DNA from: an uncultured Oscillospiraceae bacterium
GTDB lineage: Bacteria > Bacillota > Clostridia > Oscillospirales > Oscillospiraceae
NCBI GenBank assembly: GCA_947626085.1
Contig: CANQQU010000005.1
Location: forward strand, 3,342-67,341
DNA length: 64,000 nt
Reading direction: 5' to 3'
This document shows, piece after piece, positions 16,048-44,085 of this stretch (its first letter is position 1; every line of letters begins with the position of its first letter). Under the pieces are notes generated by a model. The model ran no database searches, was not told the DNA's origin, and was given only the letters and a program-made list of their open reading frames with translations. The position numbers and the translations under genes are program-made.

Positions 16048-16147
16048 CCATTGCAGCACCCTGTCGAAAATAGGGCGGTCCAGTCAAATGCAGGCCCGAA
16101 AGGTTTCCTTTCGGGCCTTAGCATGTCAAAAAAGCCTTGCAGAGTTT

Positions 16148-16170
16148 GACGCCCTGGGGGCGTCGATTTT
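16148..16170 (+). terminator. Likely intrinsic terminator of the xylB-GH43 operon
   Basis: GACGCCC-TGG-GGGCGTC is followed by GATTTT. It is flanked by two further strong hairpins at 16092-16118 and 16169-16193. Confidence 0.45.
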
Positions 16171-16196
16171 GCCCCCGGGAAGTCCGGGGGCAAAGC

Positions 16197-16260
16197 TTGT
16201 GCGGCAGGAAGGAAAGGTTGTGCGGTTTTCCTTTCTTTGTATCGGCGCGGGTGCTAAAAT
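16197..16260 (+). promoter_or_regulatory. Box A: direct repeats TTGTGCGG (16197-16204, 16218-16225), then TAAAAT -10 at 16255-16260 with upstream TG
   Basis: The repeats are exactly 21 bp apart. A 29-nt gap separates the proximal repeat from the -10. The -35 is poor. The box lies upstream of GH78. Confidence 0.6.
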
Positions 16261-16291
16261 AACAATGGAAAAAAAGAAGGAGGAGAACCCT

Positions 16292-18691
16292 ATGAACAAA
16301 CGGATCGCCCGCGTTTTCAGTCTGCTTCTGGCGGCGGTGCTGCTGCTGACCGCCTGCAATGTTCAGCAGGGCCCCACCCAGACTACCGGTGGGACCACTG
16401 CCGGGACAGAGCCTGCCCAGCCCGCCGGGGTGCCGGAGCGGGGCCAGCCCGATAAATCGGACCTTCTTTACACCGCTGCCATCGACAGCTATAAGAAAAC
16501 CGATTGGACCGCCAACTGGATCTGGACCAAGAGCAGCTCAGACGACAGCTACGTTGCTTTCCGCAAGACCGTCAACCTGGACGCCGATACTCAGGCCACG
16601 GCCTATATTTCCGCCGTGGACAAGTACACCCTCTGGGTCAACGGGGAAATGGTGGTGCTGGACGGTTCGCTGAAGCGGGGTCCAACGCCTTATGACAGCT
16701 ATTATGACACCGTGGAGCTGGACCTGAAGGCCGGAGAGAACGTGATCGCGCTGCTGGTGGCCTTCAATGGCCGCTCCGGCGACGGCTCCATCGTCCCCGT
16801 GGCCCAGGACGAGGAGGGAGACGACTACAACCAAGCCGGCCTGCTCTTTGAGATGGAGGCCGACGGCCAGACGATCGTCTCCGACAGCTCCTGGAAGGCC
16901 ATCCGCCACGCCGCCTATAAAAACCGGGTCACCGCCGGGGCCGACTATCCTGGCTATGACCAGTCCTCCATGCTGGCGGAGCGGAACGTGTATTTTGCCG
17001 CTGCCGACGACATCGGACCCTTTATGGACGTCGGGTACGACGACAGCGCCTGGGAAGACGCCACCCTGGTGGCCAAGCCCGGAGATCTGCCCTTTGGCGA
17101 CCTGTACAGCGCCATCATCCGGCCCATCAAATTTGCCGGGATCACGGATTTTGAAAATTCCGCCGACTATGTGGGCCAGACCCTGACTTCCGATACGGTC
17201 CTGGAGCTGGAGCTTCCCGGCAACATCCAGTTCACCACCTATTTTGAGCTGGAAGCCCCCGCCGGGAAAAAGCTGACCTTCTACACCGATTCCTACACCG
17301 ATCAGGACGGCATGGCCAACTTCAAAGATACCTATGTGACCAAGGACGGGGCCCAAAGCTATGAAAACCTTCCCTGGCGCAGCGGCAGCAAGCTCTACAT
17401 CGAGGCGGAGGCCGGGGTGACCTTCACCGCCCTGGGCTACCGGAAGAGTGAATTCAACGGGACCTGGGCCGGAAGCTTCACCTCCTCCAATCCGGAGCTG
17501 GATCAGCTCTGGCAGGAGAGCCTGAACACCGTGGCAATCTGTATGCGAGACACCTTTATGGACTGCCCCGAGCGGGAGCGGGGCCCCTACATGGGCGATG
17601 CTTCCAACCAGATCGACGCGGCCCTCTACGGCTATGACCAGGGGGGCTACGACATGACGAAAAAGGCGATCCTGGCCTGTGTCGGCTGGACCACCGCTTC
17701 CGGCGCGATCCCCAGCCGAGCCCCCTCTGTCAAGCCCCAGGAGATCCCCAACCAGAGCCTGGCCTTTATGACCAGCGCCTATCACTACTATCTCCACTCC
17801 GGGGACGCCGAGACCATGCGTTCCTACTACACCGCCTTTATAAACTATCTAAAGCTCTTTGAAATGGCCGACGGCCTGCCGGTATACCGGGAGGGCTCCT
17901 GGACCTGGAACGACTGGGGCGACCGGATCGACGCGGACCTGCTCCAGGTGGGCTTCTACTATTACGCCCTGCGCCTGACCAAGTCCCTGGCGGAGAGCCT
18001 GGGCATTCCTGACGATCTGCCCTTCCTGACGGAGCGGATGGAGTCCATCCAGGGCGCCTACCACGACGCCTACTATACCCCCGAGGGCTTCAAGTCCCCC
18101 GATAGCAAGTATATCGACGACCGGGCCAACGCCCTGCTGGCGCTGTCCGGCCTAGCGGGGGAAGAGGACTATGATCTGATCTGCCAGGTGATCATGAACA
18201 CCTATCAGGCCAGCCCCTTCTGCGAAAAGTACATTTTGGAGGCTCTGTGCGTCATGGGCCGGGAGGACCTGGCGGTGCAGCGGATGCTGGACCGGTATGG
18301 CTTCATGCTCACCGACGACCACGACACCCTCTGGGAGCAATTCACCACCGACACCGGCACCTTTAACCACGGCTGGTCCGCCGCGCCGATGTATATCCTG
18401 AGTAAATATGTGGCGGGCATCCGTCCCACCGAGGCTGGGTTTGCCGCCTATGAGATCGCACCCTCGGACCTACTGGAGAGCTTCAGCTGCACGGTCTATA
18501 CCCCCAAGGGCAACATCACCGTGGTCAAAGAGGGGAACACCCTCACTGTCACCGCCATTGACAGCCCCGCCATCGTCTATCTGCCCGCCTCCTTTGGCTC
18601 TGCCGCCGTCTCCGGCGGGGAGTACACCGTGGCGGAGGACGGGAGCATCCTCCTGCCCGGCGCGGGCACCTACACCTTTACTGCCAACTGA
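16292..18691 (+). CDS. Lipoprotein, alpha-L-rhamnosidase-like (GH78-type six-hairpin) glycosidase
   Basis: The ATG follows the RBS GAAGGAGGAG. There is a signal peptide and lipobox (LLLTAC). The motif FMDCPERERGPYMGDA and the N-terminal beta-sandwich region are typical of bacterial rhamnosidases. Confidence 0.6.
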   Translation: MNKRIARVFSLLLAAVLLLTACNVQQGPTQTTGGTTAGTEPAQPAGVPERGQPDKSDLLYTAAIDSYKKTDWTANWIWTKSSSDDSYVAFRKTVNLDADTQATAYISAVDKYTLWVNGEMVVLDGSLKRGPTPYDSYYDTVELDLKAGENVIALLVAFNGRSGDGSIVPVAQDEEGDDYNQAGLLFEMEADGQTIVSDSSWKAIRHAAYKNRVTAGADYPGYDQSSMLAERNVYFAAADDIGPFMDVGYDDSAWEDATLVAKPGDLPFGDLYSAIIRPIKFAGITDFENSADYVGQTLTSDTVLELELPGNIQFTTYFELEAPAGKKLTFYTDSYTDQDGMANFKDTYVTKDGAQSYENLPWRSGSKLYIEAEAGVTFTALGYRKSEFNGTWAGSFTSSNPELDQLWQESLNTVAICMRDTFMDCPERERGPYMGDASNQIDAALYGYDQGGYDMTKKAILACVGWTTASGAIPSRAPSVKPQEIPNQSLAFMTSAYHYYLHSGDAETMRSYYTAFINYLKLFEMADGLPVYREGSWTWNDWGDRIDADLLQVGFYYYALRLTKSLAESLGIPDDLPFLTERMESIQGAYHDAYYTPEGFKSPDSKYIDDRANALLALSGLAGEEDYDLICQVIMNTYQASPFCEKYILEALCVMGREDLAVQRMLDRYGFMLTDDHDTLWEQFTTDTGTFNHGWSAAPMYILSKYVAGIRPTEAGFAAYEIAPSDLLESFSCTVYTPKGNITVVKEGNTLTVTAIDSPAIVYLPASFGSAAVSGGEYTVAEDGSILLPGAGTYTFTAN

Positions 18692-18716
18692 TCATTTCCT
18701 TCCTTTTCTTCCTCAC

Positions 18717-18753
18717 GGCAAGGTCCCCGGCGAATTTCGCCGGGGACCTTGCC
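18717..18753. terminator. Bidirectional stem-loop between the convergent GH78 and kinase genes
   Basis: GGCAAGGTCCCCGGCG-loop-CGCCGGGGACCTTGCC forms a stem of about 16 bp. Confidence 0.6.
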
Positions 18754-18785
18754 ACTTCTAAAGGAGGATCTGCGCTTTAGCGCGT

Positions 18786-20135
18786 TTAGGCGGGTTTTTG
18801 GGCAGGGAAGTGGATACTCAGGAAGAACATATCCTCCTGCACCGCTGTCTCCACCGTGCCGCCATACTGGGCGGCGATGTATTGGATGCTCTTGATGCCG
18901 AAGCCGTGGCGGGCCTGATCGGGCTTGGTGGTGTCCAGGGCGTCCCGGTCCGTATGGAGTACCCCGTCAAAATAGTTGGAGGTCTCGATCTCCAGGCCGC
19001 CGCCGGTGCTTTGCAGCGTCAGGGTGATGACCTTTTTCTCCTGGTCCGGCAGCTTCTGTACCGCCTCCACGGCGTTGTCGATCAGGTTGCCGAAGATGGT
19101 GTAGGTCTGCACCGGGGTAAGGAAGGAGAAGGGCGCCCCGCTGCCCATGCAGGTGAACTGGATGCCGTTTTTCTGGCACAGCAGGGATTTTTCGCACAGC
19201 ACCACGTCCAGTACCTCGTTGCCGGTCTTAATATTGGCGTCATAGAAGGTGATTGCCTCCTGGAGCTGGTCCAGCTCCTCCTGGTTCAGCTTGCCTTCGA
19301 TCCGGCGGAAGATGTGCTTTAAGTCGTGGCACTTCATATTGATGGCGTCCATGCTGGCCTTCACCGACTGGAACTGGGCCTGGTCCTGTTTCCAGAGCTG
19401 CTGCAGCACCTCCATCTGGTGGTCCTGCTCGTTCTGATGGAACACAAAGCCGCACAAAAACAGGATCATGGCGTTGATATCAATGCTGAAGGCCTTGATG
19501 AGCATACTCACCGCCATGCTCTCCGACTCATAGACCCGGCCCAGGCAGATCAGCACATTCACGGTGATCACCATGAAGACCGAAAGCAGCGCCACGTTCC
19601 GTTCCGTCCGCTTATTCCGGACCACCTTTCCCTTGGGGCGGAAGAAATAGGCCAGCAGCAGGAAGGCGGCGATCCGAAAGACGTAAAACAGGACCCATTC
19701 CCATTCCTGGAGGGTGGTGTAGTCCGGGTGGATCAGGGAAATGGTGAGCTTGTCGTTGATCCCCAGCAGGTTCTGAATGAGCGGATAGAGCTTGTTCACC
19801 ACCTGATAGGTGGCGGTACCGGCGCAGACCACCAGCAGCACGCCCTCCAAATTGTCCTGGAAGCAGCCGTAGGTGAAGACCAGGCAGTATGCGGTCACCG
19901 CCAGGTAGCACAGCACCCGAATCCAGATGGCAGGGTAGTTAAAGTAGATCACGCCCAGGCCGTAGCTCATTACGATCCCCAGGATCCACATCAGCCCGAT
20001 CCGCAGGAAGAAGTGCCGCCGCCGTCCTAAGTGCCGGGCAAACAGGGCGATGCACAGCTGGGTCTCCAGAAAGGTCATGATCAGGGAAAAGGAGTCGAAA
20101 ACCGAGGGCCCCAGCAGGGTGAAAATCTTATCCAT
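18786..20135 (-). CDS. AgrC-like (HPK10-type) membrane sensor histidine kinase
   Basis: The start is MDKIFTLLG (an 8-nt overlap with the regulator stop). The N-terminal region of about 200 aa has multiple TM segments. The H-box is CHDLKHIF, the N-box GNLIDNAVEA and the G-box GFGIKSI. Confidence 0.8.
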   Translation of the reverse strand: MDKIFTLLGPSVFDSFSLIMTFLETQLCIALFARHLGRRRHFFLRIGLMWILGIVMSYGLGVIYFNYPAIWIRVLCYLAVTAYCLVFTYGCFQDNLEGVLLVVCAGTATYQVVNKLYPLIQNLLGINDKLTISLIHPDYTTLQEWEWVLFYVFRIAAFLLLAYFFRPKGKVVRNKRTERNVALLSVFMVITVNVLICLGRVYESESMAVSMLIKAFSIDINAMILFLCGFVFHQNEQDHQMEVLQQLWKQDQAQFQSVKASMDAINMKCHDLKHIFRRIEGKLNQEELDQLQEAITFYDANIKTGNEVLDVVLCEKSLLCQKNGIQFTCMGSGAPFSFLTPVQTYTIFGNLIDNAVEAVQKLPDQEKKVITLTLQSTGGGLEIETSNYFDGVLHTDRDALDTTKPDQARHGFGIKSIQYIAAQYGGTVETAVQEDMFFLSIHFPAQKPA

Positions 20136-20847
20136 ATTTTTTACTCCCTGAAAATTCCTCGAACCGGCGGGTAAATTCGTTCTTCCGGGGGTGGCTGATC
20201 TGCAGCTCCGTGTCCCCCACAAAGACGCTCATGCCCGCGATCCGGGTCACATGGGCCAGATTGACCAGCAGGAAATTGTTGCACCGGGCAAAGCCGCAGG
20301 GCTCCAGCAGGGCCTCCACGCTTTTCATGGTCTGGTACTGCCGGAACTCGCCGGAGGCGGTGTGGTAGACGCAGTGGTGGGCTCGGACCTCTACATAGGA
20401 GATCTGCCGGGAGAAGAGCCGGACCACCCCGGTTTCCGTCTTGACCAGGATATCTACGCTGCTGGGCTTCCGGGACTGGAGCCGCTGGAAGGAGCGGGTG
20501 AATTTCAGCTTAAATTCCGGGTACCGGATCGGCTTGACGATGAAATCCGCCGCCTCCACCTCATAGCCGTGGATGGCGTACTGCTGCATACTGGTGACGA
20601 AGATCAGCATCACCTGCCCGTCCTTCTCCCGGAGGATTCGGGAGGCGTCCAGGCCGTTCATCAGGGGCATCAAAATGTCCATGAACACGATGTCCCACTC
20701 GGCGGTGTACCGCTCCAGGAAGGGCACGGCGTTGTAAAAAATGGAAATGTCAAAGGGCAGCTTGTACTCGGCGGCATACTGCCGCAGGGCCGCCTCCAGC
20801 TGGGCGGCGGCGTCCTTACTGTCCTCCACGATGGCGATTTTATACAA
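20128..20847 (-). CDS. LytTR-family response regulator
   Basis: A TTG start follows the RBS GGGGGA. The receiver has DIVFMDILMP, and the C-terminal LytTR domain contains ...ISYVEVRAHHCVYHT... Confidence 0.85.
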   Translation of the reverse strand: MYKIAIVEDSKDAAAQLEAALRQYAAEYKLPFDISIFYNAVPFLERYTAEWDIVFMDILMPLMNGLDASRILREKDGQVMLIFVTSMQQYAIHGYEVEAADFIVKPIRYPEFKLKFTRSFQRLQSRKPSSVDILVKTETGVVRLFSRQISYVEVRAHHCVYHTASGEFRQYQTMKSVEALLEPCGFARCNNFLLVNLAHVTRIAGMSVFVGDTELQISHPRKNEFTRRFEEFSGSKKYG

Positions 20848-20878
20848 GCGGCATCCCCCCGTCGATCATTTCATTTTT

Positions 20879-20907
20879 ATTATAACAAGCTCGTCCAAAA
20901 GAGTCAA
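20879..20907 (-). promoter_or_regulatory. Near-consensus sigma-70 promoter of the regulator-kinase operon
   Basis: The minus strand reads TTGACT-17 nt-TATAAT. Confidence 0.6.
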
Positions 20908-20932
20908 TTCACCGACTGAGAAAAAAGTAAAT

Positions 20933-20996
20933 TTGTGCGGTGGGAGAGCAAGGTTGTGCGGTTTTCCTTGTATTGCGGTTGGCGGGGGAGTATGCT
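20933..20996 (+). promoter_or_regulatory. Box B: direct repeats TTGTGCGG (20933-20940, 20954-20961), then TATGCT -10 at 20991-20996
   Basis: It has the same 21-bp phasing and 29-nt gap as box A. It is divergent from the regulator promoter and lies upstream of the lipoprotein-GH3 operon. Confidence 0.6.
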
Positions 20997-21050
20997 GAAA
21001 CTGCCAATAAAAGGGCCTCCGGCCCGGACTACTTTAAGGAGGAAACCCAA

Positions 21051-21668
21051 ATGAAAAAGACTATCAGCCTTCTGCTCACCGCCTGTCTGGTGGTTTGCCT
21101 GCTCTGCGCCTGCGACAGCGGCAGCTCCGCCGGCGGCAAGATCACCGGGATCTACCTGTCCCCGGCGAACCTGTCCTACCAGAATATGCGCCCCCAGTAC
21201 AACTACTATCTCACCACCTTCACCCAGCAGGAGCTGACCCTGATGGACGACAACACCTACTGCCTGGTGATCTCCGCCTCCACCTTCTCCGCTCTGGAGC
21301 TGGCCGAAAGCACCAACGATGCCAAGGGCAACGAGCGGGAGAACTACATCACCAAGATCTACGGTACTTACACCAGCGCCGTCAATGACCTGGACGAGGA
21401 TCTGCTGGATGTGACCCTGTCCGCCCCCACCCGGGTGGTCAAGAGCTACGACCAGACCTATTGGCTGGACACCGACGCCTGGACCGACAACATGGGCAAG
21501 CTGGTAGTGCCGCCCACCGGCTATGACGACAACGGCCAGCCCATCCGGGACGAGAACGCCACTCCCTGGACCGCTCAGCAGTATCTGGAGAGCGTCACCC
21601 TGACGACCACCACCATTCAGGTCAACCAGAAAACCGCCAGCTTCGACTTTACCGACTTCGGCGTGTAA
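21051..21668 (+). CDS. Lipoprotein of unknown function (205 aa)
   Basis: The RBS is AAGGAGG. The start MKKTISLLLTACLVVCLLCAC carries a lipobox. No family recognised. Confidence 0.7.
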   Translation: MKKTISLLLTACLVVCLLCACDSGSSAGGKITGIYLSPANLSYQNMRPQYNYYLTTFTQQELTLMDDNTYCLVISASTFSALELAESTNDAKGNERENYITKIYGTYTSAVNDLDEDLLDVTLSAPTRVVKSYDQTYWLDTDAWTDNMGKLVVPPTGYDDNGQPIRDENATPWTAQQYLESVTLTTTTIQVNQKTASFDFTDFGV

Positions 21669-21692
21669 GCCTCTGCCTTTGGAGGAATCGCC

Positions 21693-24584
21693 ATGGGAAA
21701 GAGTAATCTATGGCGGGGCATGACGGCGCTTTTGGCGCTGATCGTGTGCCTGACCAGCTTCGGCACCAGCCTGGCCTTCACCCGGGAGGGAGATGTGAAC
21801 CTGTTTTTGGGCACGCTGCCCCCGGCGGCGGCGGTGACGGACGACACCAATTACTATAAGTCCAGCTACGCCAGCATGGACGAGATGCGCCAGGCCCAGC
21901 AGGACTACCTGATCGAGAGTCAGATCGAAGGCTCCGTGCTGCTGCGCAACGAGAACGCCGCCCTGCCCCTGGCCAAGGATGCGGCCGTCACCCTCTTCGG
22001 CTTTGCAGCCGCCACCCCCGTGTATCATGGCGGCTCCGGCGGCCCCCCCAACACCGGCATCAACCTCTACGACGCCCTCAAGGCCGAAGGCGTCCGGGTC
22101 AACGACACGGTGTACAACGCCATTGTGAACACCCCCTCCGACCGGACCAAGACCGGTCTGATCGGGGAGATCCCCGCCTCCGCCTACGCCGGCACCGAGA
22201 GCTCCTACGCCTCCGACTACAATGACGCGGCCATTTACGTCATGAGCCGGTTCGGCGGCGAGGAAGGCGACCTGAACCACGGTCTCCAGGGCGACTGGCA
22301 GGAGGGCCCGGCGGACATCCCCGAGCTCAAGCTCCATCCGGAGGAGCTTGACACCCTGAACCTTATCAAGAATTCCGGCAAATTCGACAAGATCATTGTG
22401 GTTCTGAACTCCGGCTACGCCATGGAGCTCCAAGAGCTGATCGACCTGGGGGTGGACGCCATCCTCTGGATCGGCTATCCCGGCAACTACGGCATGACCG
22501 GCGTGGCAAAGATCCTCAACGGCCAGGCAGACCCTTCCGGCCGGAACGTGATCACCTATGCCGCCGATTCCCTGTCCAGCGCCGCGATGCAGAACGCCGG
22601 AGACTTCACCTTCACCAACCTGACGGGCCTTTACAAGAACAAGTACCTGGTCTACGCCGAGGGCATCTATGTGGGCTACAAGTACTATGAGACCCGGTAT
22701 CAGGATGAGATCCTGGGCCTGCACAACGCGACCTCGGAGAAGGGCGTCTACGCCTCCCAGAACGGGGCCTGGAACTATGCCGACGAGATGGTTTACACCT
22801 TCGGCGCGGGCCAAAGCTACGCAAGCTTCACCCAGGAGCTTCTCAGCGTCAACTGGGACAAGACCGCGCACACCCTCACCGCTCAGGTGAAGGTCACCAA
22901 CAACGGCGGCTTTGATGGCAAGTCCATGGATGTGGTCCAGCTCTATGTCCAGCTCCCCTGGCAGGAGGGACAGACGGAAAAGAGCGCCATCCAGCTCGTG
23001 GACTTTGCCAAGACCGGCCCCCTGGCCTCCGGTGAGAGCGAGACCGTGACGCTGGAGGTCTCCGACTATCTGTTCGCCGCCTATGACGCGAACGCCGTCA
23101 ACGGCGCGGATGGGACCAAGCAGGGCTGCTACGTCTTCGACGCTGGGGATTACTACTTCGCCATCGGCAGCGACGCCCACGACGCCCTGAACAATGTCCT
23201 GGCGGCCCAAGGGGTCACCGGCATGTATGACGCCGAGGGGAATCCAGTCTCCGGCGACAAGGCCAAGGTGGTCAAGGACACCCTAGCGGCCCTGGACAAC
23301 ACGACCTATGCCGTGTCCCAGCGCACCGGCGCGGTGGTTTCCAACCACTTCGAGGACCGGGACATCAACTATTTCCTCCCCGGCACCGTTACCTACCTGA
23401 CCAGGGCGGATTGGAACACCTTCCCCGACACGGTGGCCACCCTCACCGCCAACGAGGAGATCACCGACCTGATGGAGAACTTCCAGTACGAAAAACCCAG
23501 CGACGCCCCGGATATCTCTGCCTATAAGTATAAGCAGGAGAACGGCATCAGCTTCATTGACATGAAGGACGTGCCCTTCGACGATCCCATGTGGGACGAC
23601 TTCATCGATCAGCTCACCGTCACGGAGCTGGCCCAGATCACCGGCGACAAGATGGGCCTGGACAAGATCGAATCCATCGATATGCCCAGCTATGCCGGCG
23701 GCGACGGCCCCGACGGCCACCAGGCCGGCACCCTGTTCAACGCGGAAATGCTGGCGGCCTCCACCTTCAGCAAAGAGATGCTCCGGCTCCGCGGTGACTT
23801 CCTGGCGGAGGAGAGCTACTACATCGGCTTCCGGCAGATCTACGCCCCCGGCGGCAACATCCACCGCACGCCCTACTCCGGTCGGAACTTTGAGTACTAC
23901 TCCGAAGATTCTATCATGAGCTACCTGTGCGGCGAGGTCCAGACCCTGGCCATGGCCCAGAAGGGGTGCGTGGGCACCTTCAAGCACTTCTGCGGCAACG
24001 ATCAGGAGACCAACCGCCACGGCGTGGCCACCTTCATGACTGAGCAGACCTACCGGGAAGGACCCTTGAAGGGCTTCGAGGGCGGCCTGCAGGCCGGCCA
24101 CTCCATGGCCACCATGACGGCATATAACCGGATCGGCTGCATCCCCACCGCCTCCGACTATGCCACCATGACCACCGTCCTGCGGGAGGAGTGGGGCTTC
24201 ACCGGCATCAACATGACGGACTCCTCCAAGGACTCCGCCTCCTACATGGGCACGGCCGACGCCATCACCGCCGGGACCAACCAGTTCAACAACGACCCGG
24301 GCCGGGTGCCCGAGGTGTCCAACCTGCTGACCAAGGACCGGGACGGCTTCATCTGGGGCAAGCTCCGGCAGGTAGCTAAGTATTACCTGTACACCATGAG
24401 CCGGTCCAACCTGGTGAACGGCCTGGCCAAGGAGGTCCCCGTGGCGGACTACACGCCCTGGTGGAAGCCGGCAATGCTGGCTCTGGACGGGGTGCTGGGC
24501 GTCCTCACCGCTGCCAGCCTGGTGCTGTTCCTGGTAAACACCTATGGAAAAAAGAGGAGGAAAAACGATGAAAAATCTGCTTAA
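21693..24584 (+). CDS. Glycoside hydrolase family 3, permuted domain order, N-terminal signal-anchor and C-terminal TM anchor
   Basis: The GH3 C-domain text (VLLRNENAALPL...VGYKYYETRY) and an Fn3-like segment (VVQLYVQLP) precede the GH3 catalytic barrel. The barrel shows HRTPYSGRNFEYYSEDS, KHFCGNDQE and the nucleophile motif GFTGINMTDS. The C-terminal hydrophobic helix is followed by KKRRKNDEKSA. Confidence 0.85.
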   Translation: MGKSNLWRGMTALLALIVCLTSFGTSLAFTREGDVNLFLGTLPPAAAVTDDTNYYKSSYASMDEMRQAQQDYLIESQIEGSVLLRNENAALPLAKDAAVTLFGFAAATPVYHGGSGGPPNTGINLYDALKAEGVRVNDTVYNAIVNTPSDRTKTGLIGEIPASAYAGTESSYASDYNDAAIYVMSRFGGEEGDLNHGLQGDWQEGPADIPELKLHPEELDTLNLIKNSGKFDKIIVVLNSGYAMELQELIDLGVDAILWIGYPGNYGMTGVAKILNGQADPSGRNVITYAADSLSSAAMQNAGDFTFTNLTGLYKNKYLVYAEGIYVGYKYYETRYQDEILGLHNATSEKGVYASQNGAWNYADEMVYTFGAGQSYASFTQELLSVNWDKTAHTLTAQVKVTNNGGFDGKSMDVVQLYVQLPWQEGQTEKSAIQLVDFAKTGPLASGESETVTLEVSDYLFAAYDANAVNGADGTKQGCYVFDAGDYYFAIGSDAHDALNNVLAAQGVTGMYDAEGNPVSGDKAKVVKDTLAALDNTTYAVSQRTGAVVSNHFEDRDINYFLPGTVTYLTRADWNTFPDTVATLTANEEITDLMENFQYEKPSDAPDISAYKYKQENGISFIDMKDVPFDDPMWDDFIDQLTVTELAQITGDKMGLDKIESIDMPSYAGGDGPDGHQAGTLFNAEMLAASTFSKEMLRLRGDFLAEESYYIGFRQIYAPGGNIHRTPYSGRNFEYYSEDSIMSYLCGEVQTLAMAQKGCVGTFKHFCGNDQETNRHGVATFMTEQTYREGPLKGFEGGLQAGHSMATMTAYNRIGCIPTASDYATMTTVLREEWGFTGINMTDSSKDSASYMGTADAITAGTNQFNNDPGRVPEVSNLLTKDRDGFIWGKLRQVAKYYLYTMSRSNLVNGLAKEVPVADYTPWWKPAMLALDGVLGVLTAASLVLFLVNTYGKKRRKNDEKSA

Positions 24585-24975
24585 AGACAGACGCTTCGGA
24601 TTTTACCTCTCCGCCGGCAGCGCCGCTGCCGCCGTCATTGGCGCGGTGGTGTATGTGATCGTGTACATGGTCACCGCCGGGCAGACTGTGGACCGGGTCT
24701 TCGACTGGATGACCTTCGGCTTTGCCCTGGGCGGCGGCCTGGTGGGCCTGGCCTGTGAGATCTTCCGCCTCCGCTTCGGACCCATCCTGGCGACGTGCTG
24801 CCTGAGTGTGGGACTGGCCATTCACCTGGTGGAGTCGGCCTACCCCCTGGCGGATGTACTCACCGGCGTACCCTTCTTCGGGGGCAATTTCACCCTAGCC
24901 CTCATTTTCGCGGTCGTGTTTGGCCTGGCTACCCTTGTACAGGTGGCCGCGGCCTTCATGGAACACAATAAATAA
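24568..24975 (+). CDS. Small 4-TM membrane protein of unknown function
   Basis: The RBS is GAGGAGG. It overlaps the GH3 3' end by 17 nt and has four hydrophobic segments. Confidence 0.6.
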   Translation: MKNLLKDRRFGFYLSAGSAAAAVIGAVVYVIVYMVTAGQTVDRVFDWMTFGFALGGGLVGLACEIFRLRFGPILATCCLSVGLAIHLVESAYPLADVLTGVPFFGGNFTLALIFAVVFGLATLVQVAAAFMEHNK

Positions 24976-24994
24976 GAATTGGAGGAAAATCACA

Positions 24995-26350
24995 ATGAAA
25001 CTGCGTAAACTCCTGGCTCTGGTCCTGGCGGCCGTGATGCTCATGGGCATCTTGGCGGCCTGCGGCCCCACCGAAAACACCGACGGCACCAAGGAAAACA
25101 CCAACGGAAACACCAACGGTACCGAGGCCCCCGCTTCCAACAAGTCCTATCAGCTCTACGGCAAGTACGAGGAGGAGGGCGAGTTCGCCTCCATGATGAA
25201 CATGGCCTTCCTGCTGGATCTGAACGCCGACGGCACCGCCGTTTGCGACCGGTACTCCTTCGGCCAGTACGACGCCTCTCCCGCCGATTCCAACCCCTCC
25301 TACACCCAGAGCTACCTGTCCGGTACCTGGAAGGAAGTGGAAAAGGACGGCGTGCCCTGCCTGCAGATCAAGATCGCCTATGTGGACGAGGCGGGCAACG
25401 AGTCCAACAACCAGACCGCCTACGCCTACGAGGTGGCCGGTACCTACAGCTTTGAAATGACCTTCCCCGTGGTCCCCGGCATGTCCTACACCCGGAACGT
25501 GACCATGGAGGGCACGGAAAACAAGACCTACGCCACCGACGACGACTTCATCGCCGCCTACAAGATCGAGTTTACCGCTCCTGAGAACATCGGCTCCTTC
25601 GTGGACGCCGAGAACAACGGCACCGCTTATCTGCAGGCTGACGGCACCCTGCTGCTCTACGCCGGTTATGATAAGTTTGCTGACGGCAAGTGGACCAAGA
25701 CCGACGACGCCATCACCATTTCCGTGGGCGGCGAGGCCGTGGAAGTGACCATGGATGGCAATAAGGCCTCCTTCTCCTACAGCCGCAGCCTGGATGGCTC
25801 CAACACGGTGGATTACACCTTCGTCTGCGAGGACATCACCGCCATCGCCGCGCCCGAAGTGGGCGAGGACACCCCCTACACCGCTTCCGTTGACATGGGT
25901 GGCAACGAGACCACCGCGGAGCTGACTTTGGCTTCCGACGGCACCGCCAACCTGAAGGTCTTCACCGACATCCCCTGCACCTACACCCAGGTGGGCAGCG
26001 TGGTCATTCTGGAGGCTGCCGGGGAGCTGGAAGGCTACGCCGCTCAGATTTGGCCCGGCGTCAGCCATGCCTACATCCTCAACGAGGACCGGAGCATGGT
26101 GGGCGTGGTCAACGCCTATGAGGCCGGCGATCTGGTGCTGATCCTCCTGGACGAGACCAACATGAAGGTCTGCTTCCCCTCCTACGGGATGGAGCGGGAC
26201 GGCTTCACCTACACCCTCAGCGAGGACGGCACCGCGCTGACCGTCACCGCTCCCAGTGAGGAAGAGCTGGGCGCCTTTGCCCAGATCTGGGCCGGCGTCG
26301 GCGCTGAGAACTGGACCATCGACGGCAACACCGCTACCAAGGCGGAGTAA
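24995..26350 (+). CDS. Lipoprotein of unknown function (451 aa)
   Basis: The RBS is GGAGGA. The start MKLRKLLALVLAAVMLMGILAAC carries a lipobox, and an Asn/Thr/Gly linker follows. No family recognised. Confidence 0.7.
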   Translation: MKLRKLLALVLAAVMLMGILAACGPTENTDGTKENTNGNTNGTEAPASNKSYQLYGKYEEEGEFASMMNMAFLLDLNADGTAVCDRYSFGQYDASPADSNPSYTQSYLSGTWKEVEKDGVPCLQIKIAYVDEAGNESNNQTAYAYEVAGTYSFEMTFPVVPGMSYTRNVTMEGTENKTYATDDDFIAAYKIEFTAPENIGSFVDAENNGTAYLQADGTLLLYAGYDKFADGKWTKTDDAITISVGGEAVEVTMDGNKASFSYSRSLDGSNTVDYTFVCEDITAIAAPEVGEDTPYTASVDMGGNETTAELTLASDGTANLKVFTDIPCTYTQVGSVVILEAAGELEGYAAQIWPGVSHAYILNEDRSMVGVVNAYEAGDLVLILLDETNMKVCFPSYGMERDGFTYTLSEDGTALTVTAPSEEELGAFAQIWAGVGAENWTIDGNTATKAE

Positions 26351-26367
26351 TTCAGAAACTCATTCAC

Positions 26368-26393
26368 AAGGCCCCGGCAACCGCCGGGGCCTT
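26368..26393 (+). terminator. Stem-loop AAGGCCCCGGC-AACC-GCCGGGGCCTT (weak T-tract)
   Basis: A perfect 11-bp stem lies directly after the lipoprotein gene. Confidence 0.45.
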
Positions 26394-26419
26394 GCCATTC
26401 CAAACAGGAGATTCAGAAA

Positions 26420-27418
26420 ATGAAAAGAATTAAGTGGATCGCGCCACTGATTTTGGCGGCGCTCCTTCTGACCGCCTGCGCCGGCGGCGGGCAGGAGCCT
26501 CCCACGACCACCGCCGGGCAGGTGGTCAAGCTGATCGTGGACCAGAGCCCAGATCAGGTGGCCTATGTGGAAGGGGAGACCTTCGACCCTGCCGGAACGG
26601 TGATCAACGCCCAGCTGTCCGACGGCTCGATCCTGGAGGACGTGCCCTATACCGTCACGGTGGACACCCCCCTGACCCGGACTACGCTGTATGCCGAATT
26701 TGCCTACGGCGGCAAGACGGTGAGCATCCAGCTTCGGATCACTCTGGCGGGCAACGGCCCGGAATATACCTGTGAGAATACCCCCTTTGTCCCCGGCAGC
26801 CCTCTGGAGGGCAAGGTCATTTACTTCCTGGGCTCCTCCGTCACCTTGGGTGCCTATTCCGGGAATGAATCCATGGCGGACTACCTTGCCAAGAAGGATG
26901 GGGCTGTGTGCATCAAGGAAGCCGTGTCCGGCACCACCTTGGGGGATTTTAAGGACGGCAGTTATGTGGAGCGGCTGAATGCGTACCTGGCCTCTCCGGA
27001 CCGGGCGGAAAAGCTGGACGCCTTTGTGGTTCAGCTCTCCACCAACGACCGGAAATCCCCCAACCGCTACGGAGCTGTAACCGGCCCGGAGGTGCGGGAC
27101 CCGTCGGCCTTTGACATCACCACCTCCTTTGGCGCCATGGAGTATATCATTGCCACCGTCCGGCAGACCTGGGCTTGCCCGGTCTTCTTCTACACCAACC
27201 CGCCCCTGGACGAGGACTATGCAAAATTAGTGGAGGGCCTGGCTCAGATCGCGGAAAAGTGGAAGATCGGTGTGATCGATCTGTACCATGACCAAGCCTT
27301 CAACGACCTGACGGAGGAGGAATACGCCCTGTACATGGCCGACGAGGTCCATCCCACCAAGGCTGGCTACCGGGACTGGTGGCTACCGAAATTTGAGGAG
27401 GCACTGGCGGGGATCTGA
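26420..27418 (+). CDS. Lipoprotein with Ig-like domain and SGNH/GDSL-type hydrolase (carbohydrate esterase) domain
   Basis: The lipobox is LLTAC. Block I is FLGSSVTLG and block V is DEVHPT. Confidence 0.75.
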   Translation: MKRIKWIAPLILAALLLTACAGGGQEPPTTTAGQVVKLIVDQSPDQVAYVEGETFDPAGTVINAQLSDGSILEDVPYTVTVDTPLTRTTLYAEFAYGGKTVSIQLRITLAGNGPEYTCENTPFVPGSPLEGKVIYFLGSSVTLGAYSGNESMADYLAKKDGAVCIKEAVSGTTLGDFKDGSYVERLNAYLASPDRAEKLDAFVVQLSTNDRKSPNRYGAVTGPEVRDPSAFDITTSFGAMEYIIATVRQTWACPVFFYTNPPLDEDYAKLVEGLAQIAEKWKIGVIDLYHDQAFNDLTEEEYALYMADEVHPTKAGYRDWWLPKFEEALAGI

Positions 27419-27436
27419 GACAGCCCACCGTGAAAT

Positions 27437-27500
27437 CTGTGCCGCCGGATGGCAAGGTTGTGCGGTTTTGGTTGCATCACACGGCGGCAAATTGTACATT
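27437..27500 (+). promoter_or_regulatory. Box C: CTGTGCCG (27437-27444) and TTGTGCGG (27458-27465), then TACATT at 27495-27500
   Basis: It has the same 21-bp phasing and 29-nt gap. It lies upstream of the second GH3. Confidence 0.6.
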
Positions 27501-27536
27501 GTGTATGTTAAGACTACTAAAGGGAGGAAAACCGAT

Positions 27537-30500
27537 ATGAGCAAGAACCCTAAGAAAAAAGGCACGCTGTGGGCGGTCCTCACCGCAGCGCTGGCGGTTT
27601 TTCTGGCAGTTCTCATCGCGGCAATCCCGGTGACGGCCTATTATGAGACCATGATCAACGCCGCCCTGAATGCACGGACCCAGAAAATCATCCCCGGGGA
27701 GGATTCCAGCATCTTCTATTGGACGGAGTATGAGACAGAGGAAGCCCTGACGGAAAATGATTTTGATATTTGCCGTCAGGTGATGGCGGAGGGGGCGGTG
27801 CTCCTGCTCAATCGGGATCAGACCCTGCCTCTGCCTGCGGAAACAAAATTCTCCCTCTTTTCCCAGTCCGCGGCGGACCCGGTGCTCACCGGCACTGGCT
27901 CGGCTTTCATGGCCACCGGCGACGCCGTGAGCTTTTACGGAGCCCTGGAGGACAGCTTCGCTCCCGGCTGCGTCAACCAGGAGGTGTGGAAATTCTACAA
28001 GACCTCCGGCTATAAGCGGGTCAACGCGGATCTGGCTGGCGGCGGCCCGGAGCAGTACCGGATCAACGAGGTGCCCTGGGAGAAATACCCCGAGGCGGTT
28101 AAGGCCACTTTCTCCGATTTTGGGGATGTGGCGCTGGTGGTGCTGTCCCGCTCCTCAGGAGAGGGGGCGGACCTTCCCAGCGGTCTGCCCGAGCTGGAGG
28201 AGTATATGACGGACGGCGACTACCTCCGGCTCTGCCCGGAGGAGGAGGAACTGCTGGAAAACCTGCGGCAGCTCAAGGAGGACGGTGTATTCCGCCGGAT
28301 CGTGGTGCTGCTGAACTCCTCCAGCACCCTGCAGCTGGATTTTCTGGACAAATATGAGATCGATGCCCTGCTGTGGGTGGGCAATTTGGGGCTGAACGGC
28401 ATTCCAGCGGTGGCGGACATCCTGGCGGGGAAGGTCAATCCCTCCGGCCGGATCGTGGATACCTTCCAGAAGGACAACCACGCCGCCCCCGCCATGCAGA
28501 ACTATGATGCCTTTCCCTACACCAACGCAGAGGAGCTGGGCCTGGAGTTCGCCCAGAACAACAACGCCCCCGGGATCGAAAAGTGCAACCGGAATTATGT
28601 GGTCTACCAGGAAGGCATTTATGTGGGCTACCGCTATTTTGAGACCCGGTATGAAGACTACGTTTTGAACCAGGGCAATCCGGGGGACTACCGCTATGAC
28701 GAGCTGGTGGCCTTCCCCTTTGGCTGCGGCTTGAGCTATACCACCTTTGAATATTCCAATTTTGCCATCTCCGACCTGGGCGACGCCATCCGGGCGGAGG
28801 TGGACGTGACCAACACCGGCAGCGTAGACGGAAGCCACACAGTGCAGATTTATTTCCAGTCCCCCTACACCCAGTATGACCGGGAAAACGGGGTGGAGAA
28901 GTCCGCCGTGGAGCTGTGTGGCTTCGACAAGAAGCTGATACCCGCCGGGGCCACAGAGCATTTTTCCATCGAGATTGCCAAGGACGATCTGACCAGCTAT
29001 GATGCCAACAACGCCAGGACCTACATCCTGGACGCGGGAGACTACTATTTTACCGTGGGGACCGACGCCCACGACGCCGTCAACAACATCCTCACCGCCA
29101 AAGGTGCGGACCCCTCCCGCATGAGCGGCACGGGGAACGCCTCCCTCGCCGCCAAGTGGACCCTGGATGCCCTGGACAACACAACCTATGCCGTTTCCGC
29201 CTACACCGGCGTGGCGGTCACTAACCGCTTCGACGATGCGGACCTGAACAAGTACGAGGGGGCGGAGGGCCAGACCGTCACCTATTTGACCCGTTCCGAC
29301 TGGACTGGCACCTTCCCCAGTCCCCAGATCCTGTATGTGACGGATCAGATGTGGGCGGACGGCCTGACCCACAACGAGGACGAGCGGGCCGCCATCGCGG
29401 AAAAGATGAAGGCGCTCTACTGGTCCGACGCCGCCCTGGCTCCCAGCGGCGTGGCCGGGGACGGGAAGGCCATCGATTTTGTGGAGACGTCCTATGATAA
29501 CCCCGCCTGGGACGGCCTCATCAGCCAGATCCCCTATGGTGATATGCTGGACACCATCTACAACGGTGCTTACAACACCCACGCCCAGCCCGCCATCAAC
29601 CTGCCGGGGACCTCGGAATCCGACGGCCCCACCGGCTACACCAAGAGTCTGATGGGCGGTGCCAGCGGCATGGCTTTCCCCTCCGAGGACGTTTTGGCCG
29701 CCTCCTTTGACCGGGAGCTTGCCAAGCTGGTGGGCAAGTGCATGGGGGAGGATATGCTCCACAGCAACCAAAACAGCGGGGAAACCACCATGGCGGGCAT
29801 CTACGCCCCCGGCGCCAACATCCACCGGAGCCAGTATCTGGGCCGCCATAACGAGTATTATTCCGAGGACGGCTGGCTCTCCGGCGAGATCTGCGCCGCC
29901 CAGGTCCAGGGGATCCGGGACCGGGGGATGCTTGCCTTTGTGAAGCACTATGCCCTCAACGATCAGGAGGAGGGCCGATACGGCATCAGCGTCTGGGCCA
30001 ACGAGCAGGCCATCCGGGAACTCTACCTGGAGTCCTTTGAAGGTGCGATTCGGGGCGGTGCCATGAACGTGATGACCAGCTTCAACCGAATCGGCGTGGT
30101 CTGGTCCGGCAGTCACTATGGCCTGATGACCGGCATCCTCCGGGATGAGTGGGGGATGCAGGGAGCCGCCGTCACGGATATGTCCATGAATGCCAAGTGG
30201 ATGGATTACCGCCTTGGCATCCTGGCAGGCCAGGACCTCTGGTGCGGCCAGAAGGGGACTATGGGCACCCTGGACGGCAGTGAGAACGATCCCGCCATCA
30301 CCAGCGCGGTCCACCGGGCTATGAAAAACATCGTCTATTCCGTCACCCGCACCAACGCAATGAACGTAGGCGATGCCACCGTCATTGCAGTGACGCCGGA
30401 GTGGAAAATCGTCCTGTATGCCGCCACGGCGGTCACCGCCGTACTGACCGCCTTGTGCGCCGGCTTGTGGATTCTCCGCCGGTGGGCCGGAAAACAGTAG
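27537..30500 (+). CDS. Glycoside hydrolase family 3, permuted, doubly membrane-anchored (paralog 2)
   Basis: The start is MSKNPKKKGTLWAVLTAALAVFL (signal anchor). It carries KHYALNDQEEGR and the nucleophile motif GMQGAAVTDMS. The C-terminal TM helix is followed by RRWAGKQ. Confidence 0.85.
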   Translation: MSKNPKKKGTLWAVLTAALAVFLAVLIAAIPVTAYYETMINAALNARTQKIIPGEDSSIFYWTEYETEEALTENDFDICRQVMAEGAVLLLNRDQTLPLPAETKFSLFSQSAADPVLTGTGSAFMATGDAVSFYGALEDSFAPGCVNQEVWKFYKTSGYKRVNADLAGGGPEQYRINEVPWEKYPEAVKATFSDFGDVALVVLSRSSGEGADLPSGLPELEEYMTDGDYLRLCPEEEELLENLRQLKEDGVFRRIVVLLNSSSTLQLDFLDKYEIDALLWVGNLGLNGIPAVADILAGKVNPSGRIVDTFQKDNHAAPAMQNYDAFPYTNAEELGLEFAQNNNAPGIEKCNRNYVVYQEGIYVGYRYFETRYEDYVLNQGNPGDYRYDELVAFPFGCGLSYTTFEYSNFAISDLGDAIRAEVDVTNTGSVDGSHTVQIYFQSPYTQYDRENGVEKSAVELCGFDKKLIPAGATEHFSIEIAKDDLTSYDANNARTYILDAGDYYFTVGTDAHDAVNNILTAKGADPSRMSGTGNASLAAKWTLDALDNTTYAVSAYTGVAVTNRFDDADLNKYEGAEGQTVTYLTRSDWTGTFPSPQILYVTDQMWADGLTHNEDERAAIAEKMKALYWSDAALAPSGVAGDGKAIDFVETSYDNPAWDGLISQIPYGDMLDTIYNGAYNTHAQPAINLPGTSESDGPTGYTKSLMGGASGMAFPSEDVLAASFDRELAKLVGKCMGEDMLHSNQNSGETTMAGIYAPGANIHRSQYLGRHNEYYSEDGWLSGEICAAQVQGIRDRGMLAFVKHYALNDQEEGRYGISVWANEQAIRELYLESFEGAIRGGAMNVMTSFNRIGVVWSGSHYGLMTGILRDEWGMQGAAVTDMSMNAKWMDYRLGILAGQDLWCGQKGTMGTLDGSENDPAITSAVHRAMKNIVYSVTRTNAMNVGDATVIAVTPEWKIVLYAATAVTAVLTALCAGLWILRRWAGKQ

Positions 30501-30551
30501 ATTTCAGCGCCGGGCTTTGGCCCGGCGCCTTTCCGCAGCCCAACATGAAAT

Positions 30552-30615
30552 CTGTGCCGCCGGATGGCAAGGTTGTGCGGTTTTGGTTGCATCACGCGGG
30601 GAAAAATTGTACATT
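30552..30615 (+). promoter_or_regulatory. Box D: CTGTGCCG (30552-30559) and TTGTGCGG (30573-30580), then TACATT at 30610-30615
   Basis: It is a near-identical copy of box C and lies upstream of the third GH3. Confidence 0.6.
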
Positions 30616-30651
30616 GTGTATGCTAAGACTACCAAAGGGAGGAAAACCGAT

Positions 30652-33656: not shown

Positions 33657-33687
33657 GGGACCCGTCCATCGACGATGGGCGGGTCCC
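33657..33687 (+). terminator. Stem-loop GGGACCCGTCCATCG / CGATGGGCGGGTCCC
   Basis: A long GC-rich hairpin lies after the third GH3. Confidence 0.5.
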
Positions 33688-33719
33688 GCCCTATATTTGA
33701 ACAAAGGAGACAAATTTCG

Positions 33720-34565
33720 ATGATCAAAGCGGTCCAACAGTTTATGCTGGGAACGGTGACAGGCCGGGAAAAGCAGGCCCGGCAGACCCTGGAAGCCATG
33801 GCGGCGGCAGGGTATAATGGGATCGAGCTGTGCGGGTTTATGGTCCGCCCGGCTAATCTGGCGGTGCGGCTGCTGACCTCCGCCGCGGGAATGCCCGTGG
33901 GCGGCGGAGGCAAGCTGGACTGGGCGAAGCTGACCCGTGAGGCGAGCCTTCAGGTGGTGAGCCTTCACCAGGACCTGGACACGCTGGAGAAGGACCCTGA
34001 CGCGGTCCTTCAGCAGGCGGAGCGCTACGGCACCCAAACAGTGGTCATCACGGGAATGTACGGCTTTGACTATGGCAGCAGGGAGCAGGTGGAGCGCCTG
34101 GCGGACCGCCTTAACCGGGCGGGGAAGACCCTGGCGGAGCGGGGAGGGGAACTGCTGTACCACAACCACAACTGCGAGCTGCAAAAGCCCATCCCCGGCG
34201 TCACGGCCTATGAACTGCTGATGGACCGGCTGGATGAAAATTATGTAAACTTCGAGTTTGATTCCTACTGGTTTGCCGAGGGCGGCGCGGACCCCCTGGC
34301 CTGGATGGTCAAGCTGGGCAGCCGGATGAAGCTCTGGCACATCAACGACCGGGGCACCCGGCACACTGGCCCAGCCGTGACCCCCATCCTCAAGACCGAC
34401 AGTATGGAGCTGGGGGATGGCAATCTGGACCTGGATGCCCTGACCCGCCAGGCCAAGGCCGTCGGCATCCGGGCGGTGATTCTGGAGAGCCACCGCAACT
34501 GGGTGGACGGCTCTCCCGTCAAGAGCTTCCAGCGCAGCGCGCAATATTTGAACCGGCATTTTTAG
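33720..34565 (+). CDS. Sugar phosphate isomerase/epimerase (xylose-isomerase-like TIM barrel)
   Basis: The RBS is AAAGGAGA. The text MIKAVQQFMLGTV...GYNGIELCGFM...LWHINDRG... is typical of the AP-endonuclease-2/TIM family. Confidence 0.7.
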   Translation: MIKAVQQFMLGTVTGREKQARQTLEAMAAAGYNGIELCGFMVRPANLAVRLLTSAAGMPVGGGGKLDWAKLTREASLQVVSLHQDLDTLEKDPDAVLQQAERYGTQTVVITGMYGFDYGSREQVERLADRLNRAGKTLAERGGELLYHNHNCELQKPIPGVTAYELLMDRLDENYVNFEFDSYWFAEGGADPLAWMVKLGSRMKLWHINDRGTRHTGPAVTPILKTDSMELGDGNLDLDALTRQAKAVGIRAVILESHRNWVDGSPVKSFQRSAQYLNRHF

Positions 34566-38335: not shown

Positions 38336-38352
38336 ATTGGTGTCCCCCATTC

Positions 38353-43442: not shown

Positions 43443-43447
43443 ATCTT

Positions 43448-44058: not shown

Positions 44059-44085
44059 TTAAACAATAAGGAGCGTTTCTTCCAA

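Follow-up and report, generated by a model that had tools for sequence, protein, structure and literature searches.

The DNA analyzed here, referred to below as the window, is a 64,000-nucleotide stretch from an uncultured Oscillospiraceae bacterium (GenBank assembly GCA_947626085.1, contig CANQQU010000005.1, positions 3,342 to 67,341 of the forward strand). It contains a cluster of genes for surface glycoside hydrolases (GH78 and GH3 families) arranged around a two-component system with a LytTR-type response regulator (RR) and an AgrC-like sensor histidine kinase (HK). Four intergenic regions of the cluster carry a common direct-repeat element (boxes A to D) in a fixed register to promoter-like hexamers. 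The boxes very likely represent operators of the adjacent two-component system, which would activate weak sigma-A promoters of the surface hydrolase genes; this assignment is based on sequence comparisons, as are the predicted binding of the RR, activation rather than repression, and the transcription starts.

Phased direct repeats upstream of the hydrolase genes

The 16-mer AAGGTTGTGCGGTTTT is present at positions 16214, 20950, 27454 and 30569, always on the plus strand and between genes, as reported in a preliminary description of this DNA. With up to two mismatches allowed, a scan of the window returned these four copies, compared with 0.04 expected, and no additional ones. A second (distal) core lies 21 bp upstream of each copy, again as had been described: TTGTGCGG at 16197 and 20933 for boxes A and B, and CTGTGCCG at 27437 and 30552 for boxes C and D. 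The pair YTGTGCSG-N13-TTGTGCGG gave four matches in the window versus 0.00 in shuffled sequences. Exact TTGTGCGG cores occur eight times, six of them within boxes, and the other two match the chance expectation of 2.3. The claim of a -10-like hexamer at a constant distance also stood, as it starts 29 nt past the proximal core in all four boxes. Each box is 5' of a plus-strand gene, namely the GH78 lipoprotein (A), the lipoprotein-GH3 operon (B), GH3b (C) and GH3c (D), with box B situated in the divergent gap between the RR and lipoprotein genes.

The conserved repeat unit, AAGnTTGTGCGG(T), exceeds 8 bp. It recurs at exactly 21 bp in each of the four window boxes, and the same holds for every AAGnTTGTGCGG-type box of close RR orthologues. 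The layout may be described as 12-nt units separated by a 9-nt spacer, or as a GTTGTGCGG core in a 9+12 arrangement. Published LytTR operators possess two 9-11-nt repeats with 11-13-nt spacers (PMC4847170), and the ComE boxes comprise two imperfect 9-bp direct repeats with a 12-bp linker, hence a 21-bp period, located 5' of the regulated promoters (PMC4005675). The repeats of the window match both, in agreement with the earlier assignment to a documented LytTR architecture.

Boxes A and B have nothing in common with C and D except for the repeats and the hexamers. In contrast, C and D lie in a block of ~165 bp (27423-27590 versus 30538-30705) that is ~94% identical and spans the box, the promoter, the 5' untranslated region (UTR) and the first 17 codons, whereas the flanking coding sequences of GH3b and GH3c share ~55-65% DNA identity. 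This pattern points to a gene-conversion tract, or to selection on the whole control region. Four boxed promoters had been claimed; four copies are present, but they amount to three independent sites because C and D share one conversion tract.

Conservation and distribution of the boxes

RR homologues number in the hundreds. A first set of seven loci was fetched by way of RR orthologues of 56-72% identity, and these share the order GH78(-GDSL) <- / RR -> HK / <- lipoprotein-GH3-~135 aa-~445 aa-GH3-GH3. The LytTR RR and its kinase are the sole regulator kept in synteny (loci L001-L007, L021, L042, L081 and L122-L133; RR identity 53-73%), and the outer neighbors vary among the loci, including an OmpR two-component system, phage genes, an insertion sequence (IS) and Rrf2. 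The repeat pair is 5' of GH78 and of the lipoprotein gene in these loci and 5' of a downstream GH3 gene in some. Over the larger collection, a GH78 box was found in L001, L003, L004, L005, L007, L075, L123, L125 and L130, and a GH3b/GH3c box in L001, L007, L023, L129 and L132.

When 18 independent promoters were compared, the information peaks corresponded to two AAGnTTGTGCGG 12-mers with a period of 21 bp, the trailing T's, a -35 and a -10. The -35 is TTGaaa, 6 nt downstream of the repeats (T in 18/18 and T in 16/18 sites), and the -10 is TAnnnT, separated from it by 17 nt. Site selection had made no use of the trailing T's, the AA at -4/-3, the -10 or the -35, and these too were conserved. 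When the regions upstream of the lipoprotein gene and of GH78 were aligned with MAFFT without anchoring on the motif, only the repeats, the -35 and the -10 proved conserved; the alignment of the divergent gap additionally retained the RR promoter and a 5'-UTR hairpin. Repeats and spacing thus are conserved together with both hexamers, a point that the preliminary description had proposed to check in orthologous loci. These alignments bear on the possibility that the shared 16-mer is a promoter cassette copied by duplication or gene conversion and is no regulator site at all. The conversion tract at C and D and the paralogy of the GH3 genes would fit such copying; however, A and B share only the repeats and hexamers with C and D, other species keep the motif positions while the spacers diverge (i.e., the repeats evolve more slowly than the spacers), and the internal 21-bp duplication is kept in more than 40 promoters. 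We regard a copied cassette as highly improbable.

A position weight matrix (PWM) derived from the first set scored true sites at 35-53 bits; of 1.49 million background positions, themselves picked beforehand as chance matches to the pattern, none exceeded 33.7 bits. Scanning metagenomes by RR alignment provided 80 further loci, of which 12 are orthologous (RR identity 53-63%, outside the training set) and 68 carry more distant LytTR regulators. All 12 orthologous validation loci have a PWM box (23.8-52 bits) in the gap between RR and lipoprotein genes, on the lipoprotein strand, and several have additional boxes before GH78 or GH3. No PWM match of ≥18 bits was detected in the 68 distant loci (~560 kb). 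Counting the 10 loci examined earlier, all of which have a box at the box B position, the box accompanies this RR orthogroup in 22/22 loci versus 0/68 loci of other LytTR regulators. Together with the synteny and the conservation of the motif, these results support the candidate LytTR regulon that had been proposed from the window sequence.

The pattern YTRYGCNG-N10-AGN-TTGTGCGGT was also searched in 185,579 species genomes and matched at least 114 stretches. Among the matches listed, those that are promoter-like are all in this same locus, in genomes that include Gemmiger formicilis DFI.6.10 and several Oscillospiraceae and Clostridia metagenome-assembled genomes (MAGs); the window itself is near-identical in the rabbit-gut Oscillospiraceae MAGs Lapin-011__bin95 and Lapin-020__bin86 of the GTDB genomes. 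About 100 of the listed stretches are scattered chance matches in unrelated phyla or inside coding sequence, and the listed Clostridia matches that were inspected outside this locus are not promoter-like. The genome-wide search called for by the preliminary description therefore suggests, among the matches listed, that the regulon is local and appears to consist of two to four promoters flanking the regulator genes.

Two orthologous loci showed peculiarities. Locus L021, from a goat-rectum Oscillospiraceae MAG, has three rather than two 21-bp-phased repeats, TTATGCTG-13-TTGTGCGG-13-TTACGCGG, before its lipoprotein promoter (~785-848, minus strand). Locus L006 contains an IS (DDE_Tnp_1 transposase, 16574-17557, plus strand) between the GH78-type box and promoter (~18045, minus strand) and the DUF6273-GH78 genes; as a result, GH78 of this strain is probably no longer coupled to the regulator.

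Predicted promoters at the boxes

The preliminary description had noted the lack of a good -35 at the boxes. The hexamers are indeed weak, but each of the four boxes is followed by a -35-like hexamer, separated by 6 nt from the proximal core and by 17 nt from the -10 (Table 1), and this element is conserved across orthologues; at the lipoprotein-GH3 promoter the orthologues have TTGAAA in the equivalent position. A sigma-70 consensus scan of positions 15900-31000 picked up none of the boxed promoters, and the GH78 promoter is therefore classed as weak. The predicted arrangement is that of a promoter next to an operator, with hexamer positions conserved and a weak -35. Taking the start as ~7 nt after the predicted -10, the repeat centers are at ~-68 and ~-47. 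The best sigma-70 match in the scanned region is the predicted promoter of the RR-HK operon, whose -35 and -10 are kept in all aligned orthologous loci. Box B faces away from it, and the two-component operon would not be transcribed from a box promoter of its own as in auto-induction of the Com/Agr type.

These positions also bear on the direction of control. The RR could bind and mainly repress or anti-activate, or box B could chiefly autoregulate the divergent RR-HK promoter. Box B is ~21 bp upstream of the -35 of that promoter, on the opposite strand, and some LytTR proteins do repress, e.g., AgrA at bsaA (PMC4227749). Such a role is nevertheless quite unlikely, since the boxes are situated upstream of the -35 rather than over the start site or the -10, the promoters that they would serve are weak in themselves, the -35/-10 register is fixed toward the hydrolase genes, and there is no divergent gene at boxes A, C and D.

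The leader of the lipoprotein operon contains a hairpin at 21013-21025 (plus strand), ~15-25 nt past the -10. A hairpin is found at the same position in L001, L003, L004, L006, L042 and L081, with compensatory changes (GGGCCTCCGGCCC, GGGGCAGTACCCC, GGGGGAGAGCCCC, GGGCTTGCGCCC and GGGCGTATGCCC), and is not present in the GH78 or GH3b leaders. It could be an mRNA-stabilizing 5' stem-loop or a second regulatory layer. The conserved hairpin would be the kind of structure expected if the boxes belonged to a transcribed RNA element (leader, riboswitch or attenuator). Yet the boxes lie ahead of the -10, the hairpin is a distinct feature confined to operon B, and Rfam assigned no RNA family at any box. 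For the related suggestion of an alternative sigma factor promoter, two identical units 21 bp apart are unlike a -35/-10 pair. Either explanation is scarcely credible. The alternative-sigma promoter and a cre/CcpA site had also been tried as candidates and were rejected on sequence form.

Repeats of distant relatives and weighing of the assignment

RR relatives with 32-45% identity were found in L134, L135, L137/138 and L141, with GC contents of 24-56%. They keep a module in which RR-HK is accompanied by a permuted GH3 (~970-1080 aa), a membrane protein of ~145 aa and, optionally, a lipoprotein; the lipoproteins of these modules have no homology to that of the window that BLAST could detect. 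Each locus has direct repeats of its own, with a 20-21 bp period, in the short gap after the kinase gene: CAAGGTTAGGAC / CAAGTTTGGGAC in L134 (followed by TTGACG-17-TATACT), ACGACTTAGGAC / ACGGCTTAGGAC in L137, AATGTTAAGTAG / AATGTTAGTTAG in L141 and CAGATTATGAAC / CAGATTCTGAAC in L135. Every pair ranks in the top 1-4 among the phased 12-mer pairs of its 7-13-kb locus. The operator sequence differs while the architecture and the target class persist. Operator and regulator therefore change together, which is the behavior predicted for repeats that are read by the RR.

Several points weigh against RR-dependent operators. Boxes C and D are, as judged from their shared block, one event. A PWM scan found no box 5' of the downstream GH3 genes in L003-L006, and regulon size therefore varies. 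The PWM and part of the conservation analysis began from motif-similar sites, a circularity that is mitigated by the unanchored alignments and the validation loci. Regulon members far from the locus, or genomes that carry boxes but lack the RR, may occur beyond the at least 114 stretches matched. Finally, activators of the AraC family also use direct repeats with ~21-bp periodicity that abut the -35, and the architecture alone therefore does not discriminate between the two types of regulator.

This last point gives rise to the alternative that a transcription factor encoded elsewhere, e.g., a sugar regulator of the AraC/XylS type, binds the repeats and that the LytTR system is an unrelated neighbor. 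Among the regulators of Firmicute glycan loci, AraC proteins and AraC-type RRs are the most frequent (PMC5320581, PMC2914790). Against it, neither the cluster nor any orthologous locus contains an AraC or LacI gene: the window annotation has none in or near the cluster, and no HTH_18/AraC domain was found in the window open reading frames (ORFs) of ≥90 aa or in the orthologous loci. Moreover, among the loci compared the box is confined to those of this RR orthogroup, box B is always in the divergent gap of the RR gene, and in the distant RR relatives the corresponding place is taken by other repeats. We consider a reader encoded elsewhere unlikely, and the adjacent LytTR system is the preferred candidate for reading the boxes.

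The two-component system and the cluster genes

The gene assignments of the preliminary description (LytTR RR, AgrC-like kinase, GH78, lipoprotein-GH3 and two GH3 paralogues) were right and were confirmed by Pfam (Table 1). The RR receiver contains E8/D9, D57, T85 and K105, all invariant in 28 homologues. An AlphaFold2 model of the RR (mean predicted local distance difference test score, pLDDT, of 85.9) had full-length ComE (4cbv) as its top Foldseek match (E 8e-14), and superposition of the modeled DNA-binding domain on 3d6w, and the AgrA-DNA complexes 4xqn, 4xqj and 3bs1 (template modeling [TM] scores of 0.77-0.81, root-mean-square deviation ~2 Å) identifies it as a LytTR fold. The best NCBIfam match of the RR is BtsR (1e-16, full length), at 60.9 bits against an equivalog cut-off of 246; neither the RR nor the HK nor any of the unknown proteins has an equivalog in NCBIfam. 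By sequence, the PDB yielded only receiver domains as matches to the RR and no useful match to the HK, and tblastn of the RR against plasmids gave LytTR proteins of ≤32% identity only, none of them relevant. The HK is predicted from hydropathy and sequence to have 6-7 transmembrane segments, an HD-type H-box (CHDLKH) and no sizeable extracellular domain; with its HATPase_c_5 domain it has the features of the HPK10 kinases of Agr/Com cassettes. The HK and RR genes overlap by 8 nt, as they do in the orthologues.

Table 1. Boxes, predicted promoters and genes of the cluster (window coordinates).
Feature	Position	Strand	Remarks
Box A	16193..16229	+	distal AAGCTTGTGCGG 16193-16204, proximal AAGGTTGTGCGG 16214-25, then TTTT; PWM 52.0 bits
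Box B	20929..20965	+	distal AAATTTGTGCGG 20929-40, proximal AAGGTTGTGCGG 20950-61, then TTTT; PWM 53.4 bits
Box C	27433-27469	+	AAATCTGTGCCG ... AAGGTTGTGCGG TTTT; PWM 45.4 bits
Box D	30548-30584	+	copy of box C, not an independent site
Predicted GH78 promoter	16232..16260	+	TTTCTT 16232-37, 17-nt spacer, TG-extended -10 TAAAAT 16255-60
Predicted lipoprotein-GH3 operon promoter	20968..20996	+	TTGTAT 20968-73, 17-nt spacer, TATGCT 20991-96
Predicted GH3b promoter (box C)	27433..27500 (with box C)	+	TTGCAT 27472-77, TACATT 27495-500
Predicted GH3c promoter (box D)	30548..30615 (with box D)	+	TTGCAT 30587-92, TACATT 30610-15
Predicted RR-HK operon promoter	20879..20907	-	TTGACT-17-TG-TATAAT; 11/12, best sigma-70 match in 15900-31000
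GH78 (alpha-L-rhamnosidase family) lipoprotein	16292..18691	+	Pfam Bac_rhamnosid6H 2.8e-32; N-terminal lipobox LLTAC
Sensor HK, 449 aa	18786..20135	-	Pfam HATPase_c_5 5.2e-21; AgrC-like (HPK10)
RR, REC+LytTR	20128..20847	-	Pfam Response_reg 56.4 bits, LytTR 41.4 bits (cut-off 22.6 bits)
Operon B	21051..27418	+	lipoprotein, GH3a, ~140-aa membrane protein, second lipoprotein, GDSL esterase; from Pfam, NCBIfam and gene order
205-aa lipoprotein (operon B, gene 1)	21051-21668	+	no Pfam or NCBIfam family
GH3a	21693-24584	+	permuted domains
Membrane protein, ~140 aa	24544-24975	+	
Second lipoprotein	~24995-26350	+	
GDSL esterase	26420-27418	+	
GH3b	27537..30500	+	N-terminal membrane anchor; Pfam
GH3c	30652..33621	+	GH3b paralogue (65% aa identity); N-terminal membrane anchor; Pfam, tblastn
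AP_endonuc_2 TIM-barrel protein	33675-34565	+	
GH2	34578-36974	+	

The hydrolases of the cluster each have a lipobox or a membrane anchor. In Pfam, GH3a, GH3b and GH3c all show the permuted order GH3_C, Fn3-like, GH3_N. In NCBIfam they come closest to exo-alpha-(1->6)-L-arabinopyranosidase, with a score that falls far short of the cut-off, and assignment of a substrate is therefore speculative; the combination of permuted GH3s with GH78, GDSL esterase, GH43 and GH2 hints at deglycosylation of plant glycosides or saponins. The AP_endonuc_2 protein and GH2 probably share a transcript with GH3c, and the PWM scan located no box ahead of the genes downstream of GH3c.

The 205-aa lipoprotein that opens operon B has more than 300 family members with 67-83% identity, i.e., it is better conserved than the RR (56-73%), and may represent an undescribed family. 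Its AlphaFold2 model (pLDDT 77.7) is beta-rich and found no match among PDB folds, the best being SecB with an E value of 0.17. A likeness to the bile-salt co-sensor VtrC (E 0.49, TM 0.2-0.3) was not significant and was not used.

The GH78-to-GH2 module has no conserved ABC, MFS or PTS transporter, either in the window or in the annotated orthologous loci. A peptide signal of the Agr/Com type would be accompanied by AgrB, a peptidase-ABC exporter or a conserved small ORF; none of these was found in the cluster or in the seven orthologous loci that were annotated.

Comparison with known systems

One close counterpart is ComD/ComE of Streptococcus pneumoniae, which likewise combines an HPK10-type polytopic kinase, a REC-LytTR regulator (the best structural match to the RR model) and an operator of 21-bp period. 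ComDE senses the competence-stimulating peptide (CSP) encoded in its own operon and auto-induces comCDE, whereas the present locus contains no peptide or AgrB/ComAB gene; it differs further in having RR-HK on a consensus promoter of its own, glycosidase targets and an unrelated repeat sequence. AgrC/AgrA of Staphylococcus aureus (P2/P3) shares the LytTR RR, the HATPase_c_5 kinase and direct repeats near promoters that are here predicted to be weak, AgrA binding as a dimer on direct repeats just upstream of promoters with suboptimal cores (PMC4227749). The Agr promoters have over-long spacers of 18-20 nt, whereas here the predicted spacer is the optimal 17 nt and the weakness would reside in the -35. 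Identity of the LytTR domains is ~20%, and agrBD is lacking from the cluster and the annotated orthologous loci. The nutrient-sensing systems BtsS/BtsR and YpdA/YpdB of Escherichia coli offer another parallel, with a LytTR regulator and, as predicted here, a direct-repeat operator and a regulon that is local, very small and related to nutrients (PMC4847170), but the BtsS and YpdA kinases are of the LytS type (5TMR-LYT/GAF/His_kinase) instead of HATPase_c_5 AgrC-like, and the targets of BtsR and YpdB are transporters rather than secreted hydrolases.

With regard to gene neighborhood, there is a likeness to Clostridia in which a LytTR RR lies beside membrane-anchored or secreted GH3. In Butyrivibrio proteoclasticus B316, LytTR regulators adjoining secreted GH3 were noted in 2010 for the polysaccharide utilization loci PUL7, 21 and 33 (PMC2914790), and the Gram-positive PUL (gpPUL) Ros-7 of Roseburia lists RR[LytTR]+HK (PMC5320581). 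The earlier view that a LytTR system wired to glycan degradation would be unusual was thus overstated, because the neighborhood had already been noted in Butyrivibrio. The distant modules of L134, L135, L137 and L141 resemble those of Butyrivibrio and Roseburia. The two papers list the neighborhood only, leaving operator, promoter and regulon undefined, and the present module differs from the canonical gpPUL (Sheridan 2016) in having no conserved co-located transporter. A literature search retrieved no description of this operator or regulon; the novelty lies in the regulon and not in the architecture, which is ordinary.

VirS/VirR of Clostridium perfringens is also comparable, as it is a clostridial pair of AgrC-like kinase and LytTR RR that ultimately controls secreted hydrolases. 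Its sites reportedly consist of two imperfect direct repeats directly 5' of the -35, with critical spacing and register (Cheung and Rood 2000, as cited in PMC4847170). VirS/VirR differs in responding to the Agr peptide and in its regulon, which is made up of toxins and regulatory RNAs, with glycosidases affected indirectly.

Other features of the window

The window has a GC content of 59%. Its other regulators are a LysR protein (37460-38350, minus strand), ArgR, a ROK protein and a frameshifted REC-only remnant (7374-7814, minus strand), which tblastn with the RR does not detect and which probably is the "non-intact" regulator implied by the preliminary description. The remnant lies directly upstream of a group II intron (RF02004 + RF00029, 4217-6953, minus strand) with a reverse transcriptase ORF (RVT_1, 4378-6291, minus strand) in a low-GC patch. 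A full-length OLE (Ornate Large Extremophilic) RNA (RF01071, 429.6 bits) occupies 43436-44069 on the plus strand, flanked by ORFs at 42585-43517 and 44055-44660 (both minus strand) that gave no Pfam match. A T-box leader (RF00230, 102 bits) is situated at 50384-50612 (plus strand), 5' of a small ORF, and a GGGtGRT-family protein (PF14057, E 6e-198; 62726-63727, minus strand) is encoded at the window end.

Proposed mechanism and implications

A model for the locus would begin with constitutive transcription of the RR-HK operon from its own near-consensus promoter. Upon a cue, the polytopic AgrC-like kinase would phosphorylate the RR at D57, and the phosphorylated RR would bind the two AAGnTTGTGCGG direct repeats, 21 bp apart, as a tandem (head-to-tail) dimer. 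From ~-68/~-47 it would activate the weak sigma-A promoters (poor -35, TAnnnT -10) and thereby drive expression of the surface-exposed GH78, GH3, esterase and lipoprotein genes. The signal may be a substrate-derived molecule or a peptide encoded elsewhere. A further proposal, which we advance tentatively and consider possible rather than probable, is that the AgrC-like HPK10 kinase, of a class so far characterized as peptide quorum-sensing receptors, senses a non-peptide substrate cue. The result would be a dedicated substrate-induction circuit for surface GH3/GH78 deglycosylases, in a module conserved across Clostridia of 24-59% GC. Candidate cues would be a plant glycoside, a hydrophobic aglycone or a released sugar, possibly sensed via the co-regulated lipoprotein.

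Compared with Bacteroides, little is understood of how gut Firmicutes control the breakdown of glycans and plant glycosides. The analysis takes a LytTR-GH3 neighborhood noted 15 years ago to a concrete model with an operator, a promoter architecture and a small local regulon, and the PWM is ready for use in annotating the regulon in metagenomes. The putative regulon is shared by dozens of Oscillospiraceae, among them Gemmiger formicilis DFI.6.10, which is in culture.

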